This document shows positions 1,186 through 10,717 of a DNA stretch of 64,000 bases, in pieces. Source of the stretch: an uncultured Candidatus Saccharibacteria bacterium (lineage in GTDB: Bacteria; Patescibacteriota; Doudnabacteria; UBA920); NCBI GenBank assembly GCA_964473815.1, contig CAYYQK010000005.1, forward strand, positions 3,847 through 67,846. The letters run 5' to 3'. The notes beneath the pieces are model-generated. The model ran no database searches. It was not told the origin of the DNA and worked only from the letters and a program-made list of their open reading frames with translations. The stretch's first letter is position 1. Every line of letters starts with the position of its first letter. The position numbers and the translations under genes were made by a program.

Positions 1186-2479
1186 CGCCATACTCTCAAA
1201 CTACGTCCCAACGATTATTATCGTTAGTTTAGTTATTGGCATATTTGCTATGGCTATTGCCGGAGTGATTAGGAACTCGGGCAAAGCAGATGATATCGCC
1301 CGCTCGAACGCCATTATGCAAACCGTGATTATCGGCTTCATTATGCTGTTCATTTCCGGAGCTTTCGTGTTTGCTTTCCACCAAACCTATGTCAGCCAGG
1401 TTTACAACAACGTCCGCGAAGATGTGGAAAGAAAACTGCCCGCTAACAGCGATACCAATAACACTGAATTGCTCGGTAATGAAGTAAAAGACACCGGTAT
1501 TACCACAAATGATTCCCGCTGTATTTTAGTGGTGGTGGATACTATTGATTGTGTTAAAAAGACCATTAATGACATTATTGGCAGCATCATTGAAAAAGTC
1601 GTTAGAGGGTTCGGTGTTGCCATAAGCAAGATCGTTGAAAAATTTAACTTCAAATTCTTATTTAACCTCCCGGCAGAAATTTTTGATAACAGCGATAATC
1701 TCCCCGCAGACCAAATGCAGCGTATAATTAACTTTAATGCCCTGCTCAAAGTTAGCGAGATTATCGGCCTAGCCTTTGTTTATCTCCTCATAATTACCCA
1801 TTATTTCAAATCTATTATCTTTTCTTTAGATAATGATTATTCCAGTGACTTTGTCGGCGACATCGGCAAAATGCTCTTAGGTTTTGCCGGAGTATTCTTG
1901 GCCAGATATATCGCTGAAGCCGTTATTCTGACAGGACAAGCATTTGCCTCCTTTCTGTTTAACACGCCCTTAGCAAACGGCCTTATCACTGCTTTAAAGG
2001 CTTTGGTCACAGATGCCCTCTGGGGAGGATTCAGCGGCTTTAGTGTGGCTTTAGTTGGCCTGGCTATCTTTGTGCTAATTTATATAATCCTGTTTGCTTT
2101 TGTGGTCTTCCGTAATGCCAAACGCTACTTCATTCTCCTCTTGATGATTCTGCTTGCTCCAATTTTTACGCCCATGCTGTTTTTTGACATGACTCGAAAT
2201 ATGGGCACGATCTTTTGGCAAAAGTTTATGGTTACGAGTTTCTCTTTAATTTTCGACCTCTTGATTCTCTTAATGATGTTTGTGTTTCTAAGTAGCGGCG
2301 GCATCACCCTGAGCAACCTCATTTTAATTCTAATCGGTCTAGCCATAATTGCCGATAGTAATAATCTATTGCAACAAATTGCCAATGCCGCCGAAGTCGC
2401 CGGATTTAAATCAGTTGTCAGGAAAGGGTTATCCTCCGGAACCGGACTTTACTACAAACTCAAAAGTTTAAAACAATAA
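1130..2479 (+). CDS. VirB6/TrbL-like polytopic inner-membrane T4SS protein
   Basis: 449 aa with many TM helices, located between pilin-like and VirB3/VirB4-like genes. The true start is probably at an internal Met after the 1185 overlap. Confidence 0.4.
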   Translation: MKAASKSIIQLLPMNNLINAILSNYVPTIIIVSLVIGIFAMAIAGVIRNSGKADDIARSNAIMQTVIIGFIMLFISGAFVFAFHQTYVSQVYNNVREDVERKLPANSDTNNTELLGNEVKDTGITTNDSRCILVVVDTIDCVKKTINDIIGSIIEKVVRGFGVAISKIVEKFNFKFLFNLPAEIFDNSDNLPADQMQRIINFNALLKVSEIIGLAFVYLLIITHYFKSIIFSLDNDYSSDFVGDIGKMLLGFAGVFLARYIAEAVILTGQAFASFLFNTPLANGLITALKALVTDALWGGFSGFSVALVGLAIFVLIYIILFAFVVFRNAKRYFILLLMILLAPIFTPMLFFDMTRNMGTIFWQKFMVTSFSLIFDLLILLMMFVFLSSGGITLSNLILILIGLAIIADSNNLLQQIANAAEVAGFKSVVRKGLSSGTGLYYKLKSLKQ

Positions 2480-2480
2480 C

Positions 2481-2933
2481 ATGGACGACAAGCAAACCAA
2501 AATAGATATACCCGATTCTATTGAAAGTTACTCGGTAACTCTGTTTTGGGGTCTAACCATAAAGCAAATCGTTTTAATGTTTGTAGCTACGCTATTTGTA
2601 GGTTTTGGGGTATTTGCTGTTGTAGCTAGAAATTATGCCACGCTTCTGCTCATGCTTATTATGGCTAGCCTCACTATGCTCGGCATGGTCGAAGTTAAAG
2701 GCCGCAATTTCTTTCGCTATCTTCTGTTCATCTTCAGTTATTACAAAACTAAACCGCGGGTGCTAATTTATCACCATTATCAAATTAGCGGACAGCTTCC
2801 AAAACAAAGAAAACAATTAGTTTACCAAAAAGAAAATAACAATAAACTACTCATTATTATGTTCATCAGCTTAATTGTAGGAATTATCGTTTTAGTTCTT
2901 ACGGGAATCCACCTCTACCATGTCGCTCACTAA
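2481..2933 (+). CDS. VirB3-like small membrane protein
   Basis: 150 aa with an N-terminal TM pair, immediately upstream of VirB4 with a 14-bp overlap (typical VirB3-VirB4 coupling). Confidence 0.35.
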   Translation: MDDKQTKIDIPDSIESYSVTLFWGLTIKQIVLMFVATLFVGFGVFAVVARNYATLLLMLIMASLTMLGMVEVKGRNFFRYLLFIFSYYKTKPRVLIYHHYQISGQLPKQRKQLVYQKENNNKLLIIMFISLIVGIIVLVLTGIHLYHVAH

Positions 2934-5316
2934 CCTATTATTTAAAACAAAACCGAAATTTAAAACCCTGCTTAACTTTTGGCAGTTTAAAGACTTGAAT
3001 GACGGAGTCATCATTATGAAAAACGGCTCGTACCGAATGTGCCTTGAAGTTTTTCCGGCGAACTTCGGCCTTATGGACGAGGAAGAAAAGAAACGAGCTA
3101 TTACAGGCTTTGAGCAAGTCTTACGAGAAATTGATGCGAAGTACCCTTTAAGGGTTCTTATTCAAACCCGCAAGACCAATGCCGAGGATTATATCGACCA
3201 AATTGAATACGCATACAGTGTTCGTAATATTGGCACTTATGACTTATTTCAAAAATACGCTGATTTCATCAGAGAAATCAGCAAGGATTATGAGATTATT
3301 ACCAAAAAATTCTATCTCATACTTGAGTTCAGTGAATTAAAATATACCCTGTCTAAAGACATCATTAGCCGAGAGGATAAGAATGCTAAGAAGAAACGGA
3401 AAATTTCTGAGCAAGAAATTTTCCAAGAAGCTAGAACCAGCATGATAAGCATCTTAACAACTTTTAAATCCCAGCTTAAGGCCATAAACCTTGAAAGCCG
3501 CATCTTGGAATCCGGAGATATCGCTAAAGCTATGATGGCTTATTTAGATGAAGAAAAGTTCTTAAACAATAGAGACTTCTTTGACGGACTGGATAATTTC
3601 CGCAAACAAGCTAAAGAATACGAATTGCCTTTTTCAGTATTAAATAAAATCAGCCCTAATTTTATTGAAGAAGAAAATATTGATCTGTTAAGCATTAACG
3701 GCAAACAATATTTAAGATCAGAGTTTGTCAGCGAACTCGGCTCTTATGCCTACATTGATTGGTTTAAAGAAATTATCATGTTTCCTTATGCCTCGGATAT
3801 TATGTTTACCTTTACCAGCAAAGATCCCAAAGATACGGTGGCGAAAATAACAGAAAAGCGCCACCGGATTGAATCGAAAATCTTTGATGAAAAGAGCCAG
3901 CATAAGCCTAAGAATATTGCCGACAATCTAATTTTGGAAAGCACCGAACGAATTGAAAAACAATACCTCCGCTCCGAAATAAAACCGATTGATTTGAAAA
4001 TTGAAATGACTTTTCGCTCCGACACCATTCAAGCTCTCAACATGGTGCATATGAATATGGAGCGAGTTTTGCAGCGCAAAATGATGCAATCAAGGATTTA
4101 TCACTACGAACAGATTGAAGGACTGAAAGGCACTTTCATTGCCGGCAACAGCGAAACGGAAATTCGCAATCACAGAGACATCAATACTGATGTCGCTTCC
4201 TTCACTTTTCCGTTCATTACCCCGCAAATTTCCTCCAATACCGGCATTCTCTACGGGGTTGATGAAATTAACCGCTCACTTGTTACCATTGACCGCAAAG
4301 AACTGGAAAGCTATAACCGCTCAATTATTGCCTCCACCGGAGCCGGCAAATCCTATTTCATAAAACTCGATTTGATACGCTCGAGGATGATCGGTTATCA
4401 GTCATTCGTCCTTGATGTGGAAAACGAGTTTGAAATGGTTACCAGTTACCTAAAAGGTAAATACATTGAGCTAAGTGATAAATCTATTTACTACATTAAC
4501 CCCTTTAATTTAGCCGGCGAGGAGTATAAGGCGCAAAAGATTGAATTCGTCAGGCAATTATTCCAAACTTTGTACTCGGGAGAAAAAATCAGCGTTACGG
4601 ATATTACCCACATAGAAAAAGCTATTGGCAGTGTTTATGACCGTCATTTGATAAACGGTACTCAGCCTGTCTTAAAAGACTTCATTGCTGCCATAGATCA
4701 GCTAATAAAGACGGAGGCAATCTCAGGACTGCTGACCGTACTTCGCTCTTACAGTGAACCAACTCATCCGCAGTATTACCTGTTTAACAAACAGCAAAAT
4801 ATTGATTTCGCTACTGATGATCTTATAGTTTTTGCTTTAAAGTATGTGGATAAAAGAGATTTCGTAGTCGCAGTAATTTTGGAAAGTTACTGGAATTATA
4901 TTAACCACCCGAAGAATAAAACGAAATTCAAAAACTTAATCATTGATGAAGCCAGTCAATTATTCCAGTATGGGCTTATCGTAGAAAAGCTAGCCTCCCT
5001 AGCCCTCAGAGGCCGCAAGTACAACTCCGGTGTAACAACCATTGTACAGTCAATCAATCACTACTATAACAGCGGGTTTCCGAGAACGAGTGATTTATTT
5101 GACCAATCCTCGCTGACTTTAGTAATGAAACACAAAGTCAGCGACTCGTTCGATAAGCTCAACGAAAAAGTGCACATCAACAAACCGGAGCGCACTTACT
5201 TAGAAAAACTAGAAATAGGTAAAGGACTACTAATAGTTAATAATTCCAAAATCCCCCTGTCCATTGAAGCCAGCGAAGAAGAAGATAGAGTTTGCACCAC
5301 TAAGCCGCCCAGATAA
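2920..5316 (+). CDS. virB4: VirB4/TrbE/CagE-family conjugal transfer ATPase
   Basis: 798 aa; Walker A 'IIASTGAGKSYF', Walker B-like 'LIIDEASQLF'; size and architecture typical of VirB4. Confidence 0.8.
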   Translation: MSLTNLLFKTKPKFKTLLNFWQFKDLNDGVIIMKNGSYRMCLEVFPANFGLMDEEEKKRAITGFEQVLREIDAKYPLRVLIQTRKTNAEDYIDQIEYAYSVRNIGTYDLFQKYADFIREISKDYEIITKKFYLILEFSELKYTLSKDIISREDKNAKKKRKISEQEIFQEARTSMISILTTFKSQLKAINLESRILESGDIAKAMMAYLDEEKFLNNRDFFDGLDNFRKQAKEYELPFSVLNKISPNFIEEENIDLLSINGKQYLRSEFVSELGSYAYIDWFKEIIMFPYASDIMFTFTSKDPKDTVAKITEKRHRIESKIFDEKSQHKPKNIADNLILESTERIEKQYLRSEIKPIDLKIEMTFRSDTIQALNMVHMNMERVLQRKMMQSRIYHYEQIEGLKGTFIAGNSETEIRNHRDINTDVASFTFPFITPQISSNTGILYGVDEINRSLVTIDRKELESYNRSIIASTGAGKSYFIKLDLIRSRMIGYQSFVLDVENEFEMVTSYLKGKYIELSDKSIYYINPFNLAGEEYKAQKIEFVRQLFQTLYSGEKISVTDITHIEKAIGSVYDRHLINGTQPVLKDFIAAIDQLIKTEAISGLLTVLRSYSEPTHPQYYLFNKQQNIDFATDDLIVFALKYVDKRDFVVAVILESYWNYINHPKNKTKFKNLIIDEASQLFQYGLIVEKLASLALRGRKYNSGVTTIVQSINHYYNSGFPRTSDLFDQSSLTLVMKHKVSDSFDKLNEKVHINKPERTYLEKLEIGKGLLIVNNSKIPLSIEASEEEDRVCTTKPPR

Positions 5317-6077
5317 TGTCGCTACTTCAAGTTACTCAATTAGCGCATGGTGTATATACCAATAGACGAAGAATCTCACGGATTATCGCCGCATTGGTAA
5401 TTGGCTTTGGTATTCTGCTATTTCTACTCTACTTTGTTGTTGCCACGGCTTTTGCAGTGATACAAGGCCAGGGCAATGTTACTGACAACGACCCTGGTGA
5501 TAGCGGTATCCCATTTACGGAATTTGAATACTTTCGCTACAAAACTATCAATAGCGAAGTCTGGTATGAATACCACCATAAATACTACTTCCCAACTTTG
5601 GGAAGGCTAACGCAAGGAGTAATCTTAGACAGCTCTGCCGCAGTGGGACTTCGCCATATTGCCTGGGATATTGCCGATAGAGTGTCTCGCCGCACAGAAG
5701 TAAAAGCCTTTTCCGAAGGCAGTGTTGCCGCAGTAAAAGATAATACGCTCTACAACACCACGAGGCGGTGGCGGTTTTGTAGTAGTAGCCCAAATGGAAT
5801 TTGCTGGTATGAAGTAGCAGAGAGAGCAGATGTCCAATATGCCTGTGGTAATGAAATAATTATCCAGCATCCAGACTCTTTGAGAAGCCAGTATTGCCAC
5901 TTAGCCAGTCTACCTAGCTTTAACAGTGGTGATCCTATTCAAGGTGGCCAGACTATTGGTTATCAAGGACAGACCGGCTGGGCGACCGGCAAACATTTAC
6001 ACTTTGCCTTATGGCGTGGTGGGCAGCCGATTGATCCCTCTTATGCTTTTACTCAAACGCACTTAGATGATTGGTAG
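5316..6077 (+). CDS. M23 family metallopeptidase (LytM domain), membrane anchored; possible VirB1-like cell-wall remodeller
   Basis: N-terminal TM helix; C-terminal 'GYQGQTGWATGKHLHFAL' (HxH) and upstream HxxxD-like 'HPDSL' motifs; start overlaps the virB4 stop (ATGA). Confidence 0.75.
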   Translation: MSLLQVTQLAHGVYTNRRRISRIIAALVIGFGILLFLLYFVVATAFAVIQGQGNVTDNDPGDSGIPFTEFEYFRYKTINSEVWYEYHHKYYFPTLGRLTQGVILDSSAAVGLRHIAWDIADRVSRRTEVKAFSEGSVAAVKDNTLYNTTRRWRFCSSSPNGICWYEVAERADVQYACGNEIIIQHPDSLRSQYCHLASLPSFNSGDPIQGGQTIGYQGQTGWATGKHLHFALWRGGQPIDPSYAFTQTHLDDW

Positions 6078-6079
6078 CT

Positions 6080-7239
6080 TTAAATACGTTTTTCGATTTT
6101 AACTTTCGAAAAATTCTTGTCTGTTTTCACTTCCACACCCGCTTGAGGAAACCAATACTCCCCGGCCTGCTTTCGTAAGTTAAAACTATTGGCATGAATA
6201 AAATGACCTAAGTAAGAATTAATAATTGCCTCCACTATTCTATTATCCTGAGAAGATTGCTTCTGAAACTGCCAAAGGCACTGCTTGAATCTACATACTA
6301 CTTTACGGCGTACTAATACATAGCTTGGTTTAATAAAATAGCCCAAAAAATCCAGACCTTGAGCAGCCGGTCGCAGAATAATTTTTTTGCCATTCAAGCT
6401 AAGATTGAGCTTTTCTTTGAGAAAAGTGGCAATCGGCTGAATATATGACCGCAGCTTTTCTTTGTCAGCATCGAAAATAACAAAATCATCCACGTAACGA
6501 ATGTAGCGAGTCACCGCTAATTGATGGGTAATAAATTGATCTAATTCATTGAGGTAGATATTAGCAAAAAACTGGCTCGTCAAATTGCCAATAGGCAGAC
6601 CCTCACCTGCAGCTGAAAATAGCGATTTTGATTCTGGAATGAGAAATTTATCACTGCATAAGCCTTTGCGAAGATAATTCTTGGTCGGATCCTGAAAAAT
6701 AATTTTTTGGACTAGCCATAGCACTTGGTGTCGCCAAATTTCACTAGATAATTCGCCCCCCCCCCGACTGAAATTTTTTCGTTGATTAAAGAAAACAGAA
6801 TATGCTTATCAATCGAACGAAAAAAACTCTGAATGTCGAGCTTTAAGTAATAATTACCTTTTCTTTCTCTTCCGACCTCGGCAATAAACTGTCTGGCTTT
6901 TGTAACAGCCCGGTGAGTACCTTTGCCTTTGCGGTTAGCGAAAGAATTATAAATAAAATCTTGTTCAAACAAAGCGAAAATTTCATTACACAGTAAATGA
7001 TGCACGATTCGATCGCGAAAATCGGCGGCAAAAATTTCTCGAGGAGTCGGGTAAGCAATAATAAAACAAACGTGCCGCGAGATTTGATAACGGCCGCTTT
7101 GGAGTTCAGAAAGTAACTGAATTAAATTCTTCTCTCGATTTAGCTCAAACAACAGAGCATTGGCTGTTTTTTTCTTGCCTCGGTGACAGTCTTTATAGGC
7201 TCGGTAGAGATTTTGCAAAGTAAAAATTGATTCGCTCAT
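6080..7239 (-). CDS. DGR reverse transcriptase, reading frame interrupted at a G10 homopolymer (two ORFs 6712..7239 and 6080..6724)
   Basis: Upstream ORF carries RT motifs 1-3 ('FAADFRDRIVHHLL'). Downstream ORF carries 'GLPIGNLTSQ' (IGxxxSQ, DGR-diagnostic) and 'YVDDFVIF' (YxDD). The frames join if the G run (minus strand of 6756..6765) is 11 or 8 nt instead of 10. Confidence 0.8.
6756..6765. repeat. C10/G10 homopolymer tract inside the RT coding sequence at the frameshift site
   Basis: Direct count gives ten consecutive C on the + strand. The upstream-frame stop codon lies 14 codons after the tract. Confidence 0.9.
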
Positions 7240-7279
7240 AGAAGTTAAAATAAGCCCAGGGCTGGAGGCGGGAGTGCTG

Positions 7280-7409
7280 GGACACAGCGGACGTAGTTGC
7301 TATTATCCATATTGTCGTTGTTGGAATTGCCATTGTAGAAATTCGTTAACCACGCGTTGTTCGGATTGTCCTCATAGGCAGTAGACGACCAGTAGTTGTC
7401 AGACTGGGT
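7280..7409 (-). repeat. DGR template repeat (TR)
   Basis: 130-bp near-identical copy of the 3' end of gene 7960..8916. All 14 mismatches are T on the + strand (A on the coding strand) in TR versus A/C/G in VR. ORF 7245..7475 overlying it is spurious. Confidence 0.85.
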
Positions 7410-7563: not shown

Positions 7564-7920
7564 TCATTTTGAAACGCTTTTCCTCCAGCCCTCGGCTTGT
7601 TTTGAAAGAGCGACAGCTTGCTGCAAAAGATACAAATAGCTTTTTTCACCGCCAAGCTGCTTAAGCTCATTGGCAATACGCAGAAAAATAATAATTGATT
7701 CGCTTTGCCAGATCAAGTCACCCAGGAGCTTTCGTCTGGTCGATAGATCGCTGCTGTTATTGATCTCCAAAATAAGTCGAATGGCTTCAATATTGGCAGC
7801 TAATATTCCACTGCCGAGCAGATATTTATACTGCTTGCCGAATTTAGGGACCCGCAAATACATTTCCCGAAGCAAGGCGAAAGCAGTATTGTAAATCGGT
7901 AGATGAGAATATAGCGCCAC
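7564..7920 (-). CDS. avd: Avd-like accessory variability determinant (small helical basic protein)
   Basis: 118 aa, predicted helical, positioned between VR and TR exactly as avd in canonical DGRs; no strong motif, so the call is positional. Confidence 0.5.
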   Translation of the reverse strand: MALYSHLPIYNTAFALLREMYLRVPKFGKQYKYLLGSGILAANIEAIRLILEINNSSDLSTRRKLLGDLIWQSESIIIFLRIANELKQLGGEKSYLYLLQQAVALSKQAEGWRKSVSK

Positions 7921-7959: not shown

Positions 7960-8916
7960 CTATCCTCGGACACAGCGGACGTAGTAGCTATTACCCATAC
8001 TGTCGTAGTAGGAATCGCCATAGTAGAAATCCGAGAACCACGCGTAGTACGGATAGTCCTCATAGGCAGTAGACGACCAGTAGTAGTCAGACTGGGTGTT
8101 AGGGAAATAAGTAGTGTTAATGCTAGGATTAACCCGTCCATAGTCCACTATGGAATTTAATTCTCTTATATTGGGCAGATGCCAGTCAGTATGGCCAGCC
8201 AGGCTAAGAGCCTGACAATAATCTATCGCCGGAAAATGGCCAGCTCCCTGGTCGCCGTTACCGTCATCAAAGACATACGTGTCTGCACTGCCACCGGAAC
8301 AATCGCTGCCGGTTTGACCAGCAGAGCATTGCTGCCACATCAGGCCTGTGGAATTATCAGTAATAGTGCCGTTACTGTTGTCGGTGTAGGACAAAGCTAC
8401 TCCGGTCTGGGATTCTCCATCTTGACCAGTCCCGCTGCACGGCACCTGGCTAGCCGAGCTGTAGTCATCGCTAAAGGCATTGCAGTGGGTTTGGCCAGTC
8501 AGCAGAGAGGCAGCAGAAGAACCCGAAGTAGCAGTACCGGCAACCCCTAAATATGTTGTGCCTGTTAACACCTTGGTCGGATCAATGGTGGGAATCGCGT
8601 TGTAAATATCAGCTAAAGTGTGGAAGGTGCCAGCCGGACTGCCGCCAGTAGTCAGGCTATGGTCGCCTTCGGTGACTGTGGCGTTGGTCGTCAGACGGTT
8701 GTAAATGTCAGTTAAGGTATAAAAAGTGGCGGCTGGAAGGCTGGAGGGCGAAAGATTGCCGGCATGGGCCACCCCTGCCAAAACTCCTACGGTAATGACT
8801 ACGCTCACACTGCTGTGGAGCACAGTTTTTAGCCAATTTCTTTTAGAGGATGGCTTCATGGCCGAGACCTGGATAATGCTCCTGATCTTTGGACCCTGAT
8901 TTTTTGAGTTATTCAT
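7960..8916 (-). CDS. DGR target protein: secreted or membrane-anchored protein with a C-terminal DUF1566/Lcl-like (C-type-lectin fold) variable domain
   Basis: Signal/TM peptide ('VVITVGVLAGVAHA'; the likely true start is Met at ~8859); 'TGLMWQQ', 'DWHLPNIRELNSI'; C-terminus 'QSDYYWSSTAYEDYPYYAWFSDFYYGDSYYDSMGNSYYVRCVRG' matches TR-encoded '...NYW...NPNNAWLTNFYNGNSNNDNMDNSNYVRCV' with N/T/L codons diversified. Confidence 0.85.
   Translation of the reverse strand: MNNSKNQGPKIRSIIQVSAMKPSSKRNWLKTVLHSSVSVVITVGVLAGVAHAGNLSPSSLPAATFYTLTDIYNRLTTNATVTEGDHSLTTGGSPAGTFHTLADIYNAIPTIDPTKVLTGTTYLGVAGTATSGSSAASLLTGQTHCNAFSDDYSSASQVPCSGTGQDGESQTGVALSYTDNSNGTITDNSTGLMWQQCSAGQTGSDCSGGSADTYVFDDGNGDQGAGHFPAIDYCQALSLAGHTDWHLPNIRELNSIVDYGRVNPSINTTYFPNTQSDYYWSSTAYEDYPYYAWFSDFYYGDSYYDSMGNSYYVRCVRG
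7969..8098 (-). repeat. DGR variable repeat (VR) at the 3' end of the target gene
   Basis: 130 bp; 116/130 identical to TR, with the 14 differences all at TR-adenine positions. Confidence 0.85.
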
Positions 8917-8968: not shown

Positions 8969-9994
8969 TTAACGGATGACCCGACTGTCATTTGGCACCA
9001 GCACAGGCAAGCCGGGATGATTCTTTAAGACCAAAAGGTCATTGGCATTGGCCGGAACCAGGTACTGAGCCAAACCGCCGTTGCTTAAGAAGATGTCCCA
9101 GCTTGGCACGCCAATCAGTCCCTGGGAGCCGATGTAATAAACTGTCCCTCTGTTTATTACCCAGGAACTCCAGGGGTGGGACTGGGTCGGTGAAGATAGA
9201 AAGTAACTGTCGGCTAAACGGTAACCGGGTAAGTTATCGGAAATAACATTATCTAGTTTATATCCTAATCCGACAAACGCTGGCCAGGAAGTAAAGCCCA
9301 CGGCCACGTACGGTTCAGTAATTAAGTAAATGGTTCCCTGGTAATTAACCAAAGTGCTGGGCGGATAAGAAGGAGGCATAGTCAGCGGTGCTTGCAAGCC
9401 GGGCGGGTTCGCCGGTGGCGGGACATTGGGTTGGCTTGACGGCGGAATGTAACTCCCACCACTGCCTCCACTACCTCCGGTGCCGCCGGAAGCAGGCCGC
9501 CACGTTGTGATAACTTTATAATCCACAGTGCCGCAGGAAGCAGTATCCGCACAGTTAAAAACAATCCAGCCCACGTTTTCGCCGTAAGCCGCGCCGTGGA
9601 ACACACCGCTGCTGTCTATGGTCACGCCAGCTCCAGCAGGGTTAAAGTGAAGCCAGCCCACGTTTTCGCCGTAGGCATAGCCGGCAAGCGTGCCATTAGT
9701 GTTAGACACCTTATAATCCACAGTGCCGCAGGAGGAAGTATTGGCACAATTCAGCGAAAGCCAGCCCACGTTTTCGCCGTAGGCATAGCCTGTCAAGGCT
9801 GAATCGGTTACGGTAACGTTGCCGGCCGAGATGCCGAAGTCCAGCCAACCGATATTTTCACCGTAAGCGTAACGGTTGGCAGGCTCAATAGTGCCTGTAG
9901 AGGCATGGACGCTGGGTGGGGCGAAAAACAATGCGATCGTTAAAGCAGCAATAATCGCAGCGTATACCTGCCGTTTATAGTAGTATAATTTCAT
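8969..9994 (-). CDS. Secreted repeat protein (four ~38-aa 'GYAYGENVGWL...N' repeats, Gly/Pro-rich linker, C-terminal domain), hypothetical
   Basis: N-terminal signal peptide; repeats 'YAYGENIGWLDFG', 'YAYGENVGWLSLNC', 'YAYGENVGWLHFNP', 'AAYGENVGWIVFNC', each followed by 'SCGTVDYKV'-like segments; 'GGTGGSGGSGGS' and poly-Pro linker. Confidence 0.5.
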   Translation of the reverse strand: MKLYYYKRQVYAAIIAALTIALFFAPPSVHASTGTIEPANRYAYGENIGWLDFGISAGNVTVTDSALTGYAYGENVGWLSLNCANTSSCGTVDYKVSNTNGTLAGYAYGENVGWLHFNPAGAGVTIDSSGVFHGAAYGENVGWIVFNCADTASCGTVDYKVITTWRPASGGTGGSGGSGGSYIPPSSQPNVPPPANPPGLQAPLTMPPSYPPSTLVNYQGTIYLITEPYVAVGFTSWPAFVGLGYKLDNVISDNLPGYRLADSYFLSSPTQSHPWSSWVINRGTVYYIGSQGLIGVPSWDIFLSNGGLAQYLVPANANDLLVLKNHPGLPVLVPNDSRVIR

Positions 9995-10032
9995 TTGGTT
10001 TCTAGGTTATTGACTTTGCACTTATTATATCA

Positions 10033-10041
10033 CCCCCCCCC
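10033..10041. repeat. C9/G9 homopolymer tract about 40 bp upstream of the start codon of gene 8969..9994
   Basis: Direct count gives nine consecutive C on the + strand, in the intergenic leader. Confidence 0.9.
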
Positions 10042-10717
10042 TTGATTTACAAGAAACTAGCCTAAAAACAGGCCTTTCTGTAGTATCCAAACTTATGTTC
10101 TATTCAATTGACAAGTGCCTGTTAAAATATGTCGCTAAAGATACTCATGATTACAAAATACTTCCCATATCTTGGTTAATTAATCACGCAGCAATGAAGT
10201 TTTCTAGGTTTTCGCTCATTATATAAATAATGTAGCAAGGATAGCCAAAAATTTAAAAAATCAGCATCGAAGTACTGATACTTTTTAATAGTCGTATTAA
10301 CTGGACTTTATTTCTGTTTTGTATTCTTCTCCCATCTTTCTTTGGACTTTTGGTCTTGGTTTTGGTATTTAGTTTTGGGGTTTGTAGTTTTGGAATTAGT
10401 TCTTTTGGTGGTCTTTGGGTTTTAAGAGTGGTGTTGGTTTTTTTAGTTAGATATGTTGACCTTGTAGTACGGTGTCGTTCAGTGGATTCTCTGGTGAGAG
10501 TAATAGTCAACGGATTGGCTATTAACTTTGAGCAGTAAAACCAATGGTTTTAGCTTCTCAACTAGTTGAACCCTAGTTCAACTAGTTCTTCCACCAGTTC
10601 CTCATACACTGAACACCTCCATCATATCTCAAAAATAACCTTTGTCAAGCGGGAATTTCGGAATGTGGGTATGGCAGGAGTTAAACCTCTTTCCCAGCTT
10701 GACGGATATACAGGGTT

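Follow-up and report, generated by a model that had tools for sequence, protein, structure and literature searches.

A ten-guanine tract that divides a retroelement reverse transcriptase gene in a Patescibacteria genome: a candidate slippage switch

Introduction

It is an open question how mutagenic homing is regulated by the hosts of diversity-generating retroelements (DGRs). If rewriting never paused, useful variants would be eroded, and an alternation between phases of diversification and selection is no more than a hypothesis of population surveys (PMC8144416). The question arises at a DGR in 64,000 nucleotides (nt) of DNA from an uncultured Candidatus Saccharibacteria bacterium (GTDB lineage Patescibacteriota; Doudnabacteria; UBA920; assembly GCA_964473815.1, contig CAYYQK010000005.1, positions 3,847 to 67,846; this whole stretch is hereafter the window), in which the reverse transcriptase (RT) gene is divided between two reading frames at a run of ten G. 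An earlier sequence-only reading of the locus had left three explanations standing, namely a sequencing artefact, pseudogenisation, or an on/off switch controlled by slippage. As far as related sequences can tell, the comparative evidence favours and supports the last of these, through tracts shared at the same site and through alleles that differ only in tract length. On balance we consider it probable that the G10 is genuine and serves the DGR RT gene as a hypermutable contingency tract of poly-G, and that this genome was sampled while the tract was at an OFF length.

Results

One homopolymer divides the RT gene

The RT gene and its parts lie as follows (coordinates are those of the window).

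6080..7239, minus strand: entire DGR RT gene, a single open reading frame (ORF) of 386 amino acids (aa) with G11, or of 385 aa with G8
6712..7239, minus strand: RT N-terminal ORF, 175 aa, with the catalytic-Asp motif YLKLDIQSFF (P0121 in public gene calls)
6756..6765, minus strand: proposed slippage tract of the RT gene, a G10 homopolymer (plus-strand C10) at an OFF length
6080..6805, minus strand: RT C-terminal frame, open from 6805, with its first start at GTG 6724 giving 214 aa, and with LPIGNLTSQ and YVDD (P0002)

On the minus strand the tract stands in the context GAA AAA ATT TCA GTC GGG GGG GGG G CG AAT (the region can also be written AAA ATT TCA GTC GGGGGGGGGG CGA ATT) and comprises exactly ten G (6765..6756). 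The first frame begins at ATG 7239, reads KISVGGGANYLVKFGDTKCYG (…KISVGGG through the run) and ends at TAG 6714..6712, 14 codons past the run; the second is open from 13 codons ahead of the run, reads SRGGGELSSEIWRHQVLWLVQK / SRGGGELSSEIWRHQVLWL and continues to 6080. The two overlap by 31 codons, 27 of them flanking the tract and about 3 inside it. The sequence-only reading had placed the G10 and the early stop here, had described the downstream frame as open across the tract with IGxxxSQ and YVDD motifs, and had predicted that G11 or G8 would fuse both frames into an RT of normal size (~390 aa). Our re-examination confirmed the position, the stop and the open frame (6805 to 6080), and in-silico replacement of G10 by G11 or by G8 gave the two single ORFs listed above.

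The restored RT matches Pfam RVT_1 (E=2e-19), and its G11 version aligns end to end, at 51-60% identity, with 29 intact RTs from Paceibacteria, Nomurabacteria and other metagenome-assembled genomes (MAGs) of the candidate phyla radiation (CPR) type. In this alignment every invariant and near-invariant residue is preserved on both sides of the tract, and no second lesion was found in the window RT. The (I/L)GxxxSQ motif (as LPIGNLTSQ) and the YxDD motif (as YVDD) place the restored protein in the DGR clade; the unbroken frame that is also expected of a DGR RT is missing from the G10 allele, and G11 or G8 repairs it. A confident AlphaFold model of the restored protein (predicted local distance difference test score, pLDDT, 83.9; predicted template-modelling score, pTM, 0.83) shows the tract-encoded Gly residues as a short loop (160-166) that joins two helices, in a stretch whose length varies across the RT alignment. 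We read the loop that holds the tract as a permissive surface loop. Two features of an intragenic contingency locus are present at this site: an uninterrupted run long enough to slip (about 8 nt or more) inside an ORF and unusual for its genome, and an otherwise intact gene that a change of 1 nt toggles.

The two frames might also be genes in their own right, the 175-aa and 214-aa products both being made and assembling into an active two-piece RT. The N-terminal ORF and the GTG-started C-terminal ORF share 13 nt, an overlap that could permit translational coupling; however, no Shine-Dalgarno sequence was found ahead of GTG 6724, and in the model the break falls between the catalytic-Asp and template-binding motifs, within one fold. 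Moreover, the break points and tails differ among lineages, and the tails are plain out-of-frame read-through. We give a split enzyme next to no credence.

Poly-G tracts recur at one loop in related RTs

Whether orthologous RTs carry a G run at the same codons had been suggested as a check, and some do: uninterrupted G9-G14 runs, in and out of frame, occur there in several lineages. In-frame tracts were found in L087 (TTG GGG GGG GGT, G9), L091 (GCG GGG GGG GGG CAA, G10) and L092 (GCG GGG GGG GGT, G9). A scan of Joint Genome Institute (JGI) metagenomes for G8, a gap and then the motif W-L..II-F..D-P gave 7 matches, of which two were RTs (L097, L098) and the remainder G-rich junk; L097, which is 96% identical to L092, has an in-frame G10.

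Broken versions occur at the same place. In L101, an NCBI MAG, a G9 splits an otherwise stop-free RT that G10 or G7 repairs, and in L102 a G13 does the same, with G12 or G15 as the repair; neither locus has another G/C run of at least 6 nt in its 10-12 kb. Among RT fragments that end in the loop, collected by a search with the N-terminal fragment, 9/10 stop right after GGG or GGGG; L101 and L102 supply the DNA behind two of the fragments. Fragments terminating just past GGG/GGGG in the tract loop include P0122, P0142, P0147, P0130 and P0214, and the gene call for P0147 likewise gives an N-terminal piece and, overlapping its end, an RVT_1 piece. Taken over the tract site, the RTs at an ON length are L087, L091, L092, L097, P0226 and P0216, and those at an OFF length are the window RT, L101 (G9), L102 (G13), P0224, P0223, P0130 and others.

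Altogether, uninterrupted G9-G14 runs stand at the same inter-helix loop in at least six separate lineages that are 51-55% identical to each other. Because tract-bearing RTs are this divergent, and because a neighbour-joining tree intersperses them with RTs that lack the tract, one permissive loop must have gained or retained the tract repeatedly. In the 120 best full-length homologues, GGG tripeptides are concentrated at two sites; we rejected the other site, near residue 126 of the family, as a second tract, since it is coded by mixed codons in L085, L086 and L092 and contains no homopolymer.

Near-identical alleles differ in tract length

Protein clusters at 90% identity hold both whole and split versions of the RT. 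In the lineage of L092, P0226 reads EDPGGGRASGLHDEISW and is whole (G10, ON), P0224 reads EDPGGGAGIRVA and then stops (G11, OFF), and P0223 reads EDPGGGGAGIRVA and then stops (G14, OFF). The N-terminal parts of these three are identical at 164/164 positions. A C-terminal fragment, P0219, matches P0223 and apparently comes from the same contig (both are listed with an 8.1-kb contig); it agrees with P0226 at 195/196 positions. When the DNA of L098 was re-translated with G10, G11 and G14, it gave the sequences of P0226, P0224 and P0223 exactly. L098 itself opens on a G18, which we set aside as a candidate large expansion: it stands at the start of the readable stretch and may be a contig-end artefact, and only the DNA downstream of it was used.

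The second case comes from a JGI lineage, in which the whole P0216 (438 aa, ON) and the split pair P0130+P0217 (OFF; both listed with a 5.9-kb contig) are identical at 235/235 and 199/199 positions and differ by one extra Gly codon's worth of frame. Near-identical alleles with different tract lengths are the pattern that would be expected of a hypermutable tract.

The same comparison bears on whether G10 could be the normal state of the gene, with low-rate slippage of RNA polymerase or ribosomal -1 frameshifting throttling the dosage of the RT. The 31-codon overlap of the frames means that a shift within it would give full-length RT, and the variable repeat (VR) of the element shows recent adenine-specific change. 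There is also a precedent in the Quimbyvirus gut-phage DGR, whose RT lies in three overlapping frames, was reported active and was explained by programmed translational frameshifts, two in number and fixed in that lineage (Benler et al. 2021, PMC8008677). That element resembles ours in that the RT is not a single ORF and the VR varies specifically at adenines; the break here, however, is at a homopolymer of allele-variable length. Because tract length varies between alleles and in-frame versions exist, our data point instead to switching at the level of DNA. Furthermore, no stable structure lies downstream of the tract (the minimum free energy of 131 nt was no better than that of shuffled sequences, z = 0.33), and the shift needed is +1 nt in the window and in L101 and -1 nt in L102, with many relatives in frame, which misfits one programmed event. 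G-rich slippery sites are poor sites for ribosomal shifting, and the best-documented cases of transcriptional slippage in bacteria involve A/T runs. Lacking structure beyond that of shuffles and a conserved direction of shift, a programmed -1 frameshift was rejected as the main mechanism, and we hold RNA-level recoding as a whole to be very unlikely, although some slippage at the RNA level may occur on such a run.

The run is unusual for the window

G/C homopolymers are strongly avoided in the window (42.5% G+C), where only three runs of at least 6 nt occur (C6, C9 and C10) vs ~9-11 expected. Two runs are 9 nt or longer vs ~0.1 expected (Poisson P ~0.006), and both lie within the 4-kb DGR cassette, the coding strand carrying the G in each case. 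Of the 1141 Gly codons in the window, 13% are GGG, the least used of the four, and among the five Gly-Gly-Gly sites in long ORFs only that of the RT is coded GGGGGGGGG (GGG GGG GGG), the other four using mixed codons. A/T runs of 6 nt or more number 144 in the window, lengths of 6-8 being common. There is no sign of general homopolymer miscalling, because ORFs of at least 150 aa span 81% of the window despite these 144 runs.

A second tract fills the spacer of the operon promoter

The other long run lies in front of the operon that contains the DGR target.

10024..10052, minus strand: sigma-70-type promoter, TTGTAA-17 nt-TATAAT with a TG extended -10, near-consensus
8969..9994, minus strand: first operon gene, a secreted protein of 341 aa with YGENxGW repeats; no Pfam match

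The 17-nt spacer consists of ATCAA-G9-TGA, such that the G9 (10033..10041, minus strand) fills the gap between the -35 and -10 boxes; the promoter lies ~30 nt upstream of the first operon gene, and its G9 is the only G/C run of at least 7 nt in the window besides the RT tract. Homologues of the YGENxGW gene, which come first in the DGR operon in L009, L092, L083 and L101 and adjoin the DGR in L085, have a tract upstream in L009 (G10, TTGCCA-18 nt-TATAAT), L092 (G14) and L085 (G11), each directly 5' of a -10-like box; in some relatives a convincing -35 box cannot be placed, and the tract was absent in L083, L101 and the L086 orthologue of L085. Across 60 related loci of low G+C content, the RT strand had 12 runs of at least 8 nt that consisted of G and none that consisted of C. 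The promoter G9 looks like a second, promoter-level phase-variable tract, and its length may alter transcription.

In L009 a further G10 (5253..5262), 5' of avd, was considered as a promoter tract and left uncounted, as it may equally be the 3' arm of a terminator-like hairpin (CCCCTCGCG/CGCGAGGGG). The stretch 1966..3376 of L009 also holds a second, different RT gene (341 aa) with a G11 ahead of it, and a gene of 106 aa on the other strand.

The element otherwise appears complete

The remaining parts of the DGR lie between the RT gene and the first operon gene.

7277..7409 (core 7280..7409), minus strand: template repeat (TR)
7564..7920, minus strand: Avd-like accessory gene, 118 aa (Pfam bAvd, E=4e-7; 30.8 bits vs a curated cut-off of 40)
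7960..8916, minus strand: DGR target gene, 318 aa, with a C-terminal Lcl_C / DUF1566 domain (Pfam Lcl_C, E=3e-37)
7965..8097, minus strand: VR, at the 3' end of the target gene, covering its last ~45 codons

The match of the accessory gene to bAvd is weak, and its position and size agree with those in relatives. The VR is 3'-terminal and lies in a C-type-lectin-like domain, as is characteristic of DGR targets. TR and VR differ at 14 places in 130 nt, which agrees with the count from which the RT had been argued to have been active; all 14 stand at adenines of the TR (which has 40), and the 130-nt comparison gave no mismatch at any other base. Beyond the VR of the target gene, none was found in the 64-kb window. 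With these parts, and with every TR/VR difference at a TR adenine, the element appears to be a complete DGR whose target was rewritten recently; as judged from its sequence, the length of one homopolymer is its sole visible defect.

Miscounting, decay and the case against a switch

Several observations weigh against our reading of the tract as a slippage switch. The tract was present in 3/120 of the best full-length homologues, and none of 80 GTDB loci had a run of at least 7 nt inside the RT, every RT there being a single intact high-scoring segment pair (these loci are best matches only and cannot measure how often RTs are split), so that only a few per cent of the RTs of the clade carry it. 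The closest homologue has an interrupted tract, GGGGGCGGG, and another codes the site GGA GGT GGT. ON:OFF stands near 1:2, as unselected random length would also give, and the ON and OFF alleles of other lineages were read from consensus assemblies or proteins. For the window locus itself, all three records come from one sample, SAMEA7428533 (a search elsewhere with the neighbouring gene returned the same sample only), and no ON allele of this particular RT was found among 5.8 billion clustered proteins. Finally, G-biased junk in fragments of the same clusters (P0221, P0230) and at the contig end of L098 indicates sequencing trouble near such tracts.

Part of this would fit a miscount in sequencing or assembly at the window locus, the true tract being G11 (or G8) and the RT intact. 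Long G runs are error-prone on Illumina instruments, and the junk and the single sample agree with such an error. However, two further assemblies, the ENA scaffold (L001) and a Logan contig from run ERR4682891 (L002), show full identity with the window, G10 included, and no other homopolymer-linked gene break occurs in the window. As a general account, miscounting would require the consensus to be wrong for most tract-bearing RTs, even by the 4 nt that separate G10 from G14; a miscount at a single locus cannot explain the family-wide pattern of tracts. We judge a miscount quite unlikely. Both the scaffold and the Logan contig stop exactly at window position 2078, beyond which the window goes on, and a self-BLAST showed no repeat there. 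G-biased substitutions or very long G/C runs, typical sequencing junk, were seen in P0221, P0230, L098 (1..18), L096 and L099 and call for caution with assembly-based tract lengths.

The most serious rival to a switch is non-adaptive decay, in which poly-G is simply the most mutable site of a gene under relaxed selection and G10 is the first step of pseudogenisation, reversible in principle. OFF lengths are at least as common as ON lengths among tract-bearing RTs (~2:1 would be expected if phase were not selected), most relatives, the closest one included, lack the tract or have it interrupted, and L101 has three non-A mismatches between TR and VR. On the contrary, no second lesion was found in the window RT, L101, L102, P0130+P0217 or P0223+P0219, and 14/14 of the TR/VR differences in the window are A-specific. 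Decay also leaves unaccounted for the recurrence of G9-G14 at the same loop in at least six lineages, despite the avoidance of G/C runs and GGG codons, and the second tract in the promoter of the same operon. We consider decay unlikely, though a rival to be kept in view.

Discussion

We propose that the RT tract gains or loses G through slipped-strand mispairing when the DNA is replicated. A length of G11 or G8 would give full-length, active RT (ON), and G9 or G10 a 175-aa stump without the template-binding and YVDD motifs (OFF). With the RT OFF the current VR sequence would be frozen, and with the RT ON the adenine-specific rewriting of the Lcl_C target would resume. Expression of the target operon would be tuned separately, by the G9 between the promoter boxes, and the window genome would have been caught with its RT OFF and its promoter at the optimal 17-bp spacing. 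Switching of this kind would take place within the population from which the window derives and would be reversible, and selection, rather than tolerance alone, would maintain the tract. A broader claim, that DGRs of CPR/Patescibacteria are under two-tier poly-G control in which a tract in the RT loop gates diversification and a tract in the promoter spacer gates the diversified surface operon, we advance only tentatively, its chances falling a little short of even.

Intragenic poly-G contingency loci are well known from Neisseria, Campylobacter and Haemophilus (such as lgt genes and hmbR/hpuAB; PMC2192423, PMC3786947, PMC8355987), and a G-tract switched by replication slippage controls a pilus of Bifidobacterium breve (PMC9187656). 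The RT tract is like these in being an uninterrupted ~9-14 G inside an ORF and atypical for the composition of the genome, in that 1 nt toggles an intact gene, and in the presence of ON and OFF states among close alleles. It is unlike them in that the gated gene encodes an RT for targeted mutagenesis, not a surface structure or modification enzyme, such that the switch would control a mutator; the host, moreover, is an uncultivated CPR-type (Patescibacteria) bacterium, and switching of the RT tract is putative. For the promoter tract the counterparts are the tpr genes of Treponema pallidum, which undergo phase variation through poly-G in the promoter spacer, and porA of Neisseria meningitidis, which does likewise (PMC3639595). 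As in these, the G9 fills the -35/-10 spacer (17 bp, the optimum) and homologous promoters have G9, G10, G11 and G14; unlike in these, the candidate tract would govern a DGR target operon. Contingency loci of phage genomes (preprint PMC12633550) likewise use hypermutable repeats for bet-hedging in a system of conflict or interaction, with different genes and hosts and with no retroelement.

Compared with canonical DGRs (Bordetella phage BPP-1 type; CPR DGRs, PMC5758913, PMC8144416), the element appears to have the full parts list, with an A-specific TR/VR pattern, a target with an Lcl_C / C-type-lectin fold and a putative Avd accessory gene; it would depart from them in the proposed genetic on/off control of the RT, which these two surveys do not describe. 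In the literature, beyond the frameshifted RT of Quimbyvirus, we found no homopolymer switch in a DGR RT and no phase variation in Patescibacteria, our coverage of papers on CPR/DPANN DGRs being incomplete. Taken singly, DGRs and phase variation by poly-G are familiar; we found no report of their combination in a DGR RT.

If the switch reading is true, a heritable and reversible RT switch would be a simple mechanism for alternating diversification and selection, by which a lineage could hold on to a useful variant and take up the search again later. It would also carry homopolymer phase variation beyond host-associated pathogens, into uncultivated bacteria of the CPR. If the two-tier claim holds, the tract would be the first contingency locus found to control retroelement-based hypermutation and the first evidence of simple sequence repeat phase variation in the CPR. 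DGR surveys that demand an intact RT ORF will miss such elements or misclassify them as dead.

Additional observations

Long G runs on the RT strand were also seen near DGR RTs outside the CPR. In Brachyspira (L078 and L082, 7234..7245) a G12 lies ~110 nt downstream of the RT; in Omnitrophota, G runs lie at the 5' ends of ORFs (L017, 8817..8825, G9; L029, 8650..8659, G10); and in L071 a G10 (2297..2306) lies inside a 784-aa ORF upstream of the DGR RT.

In several relatives the RT gene calls (P0003, P0068, P0125, P0130 and P0216) run upstream through the TR, which yields an N-terminal Lcl_C-like peptide fused to the RT; these fusions are probably an artefact of an open TR frame.

Members of the family of the first operon gene, recognised by (Y/W)(G/S)ENxGW, lie at 3390..4304 in L009, 965..1879 in L092, 9140..10090 in L083, 3310..4137 in L101 and 9112..12648 in L085, and some also carry PG_binding_1. 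The window member has an internal direct DNA repeat of ~40 nt that is 95% identical (9650..9688 and 9758..9797). On the opposite strand beside the DGR (2481..6077, plus strand) stand type-IV-secretion-like genes, which encode a PrgI-like protein, a VirB4/TraG P-loop ATPase (798 aa) and an M23 peptidase.

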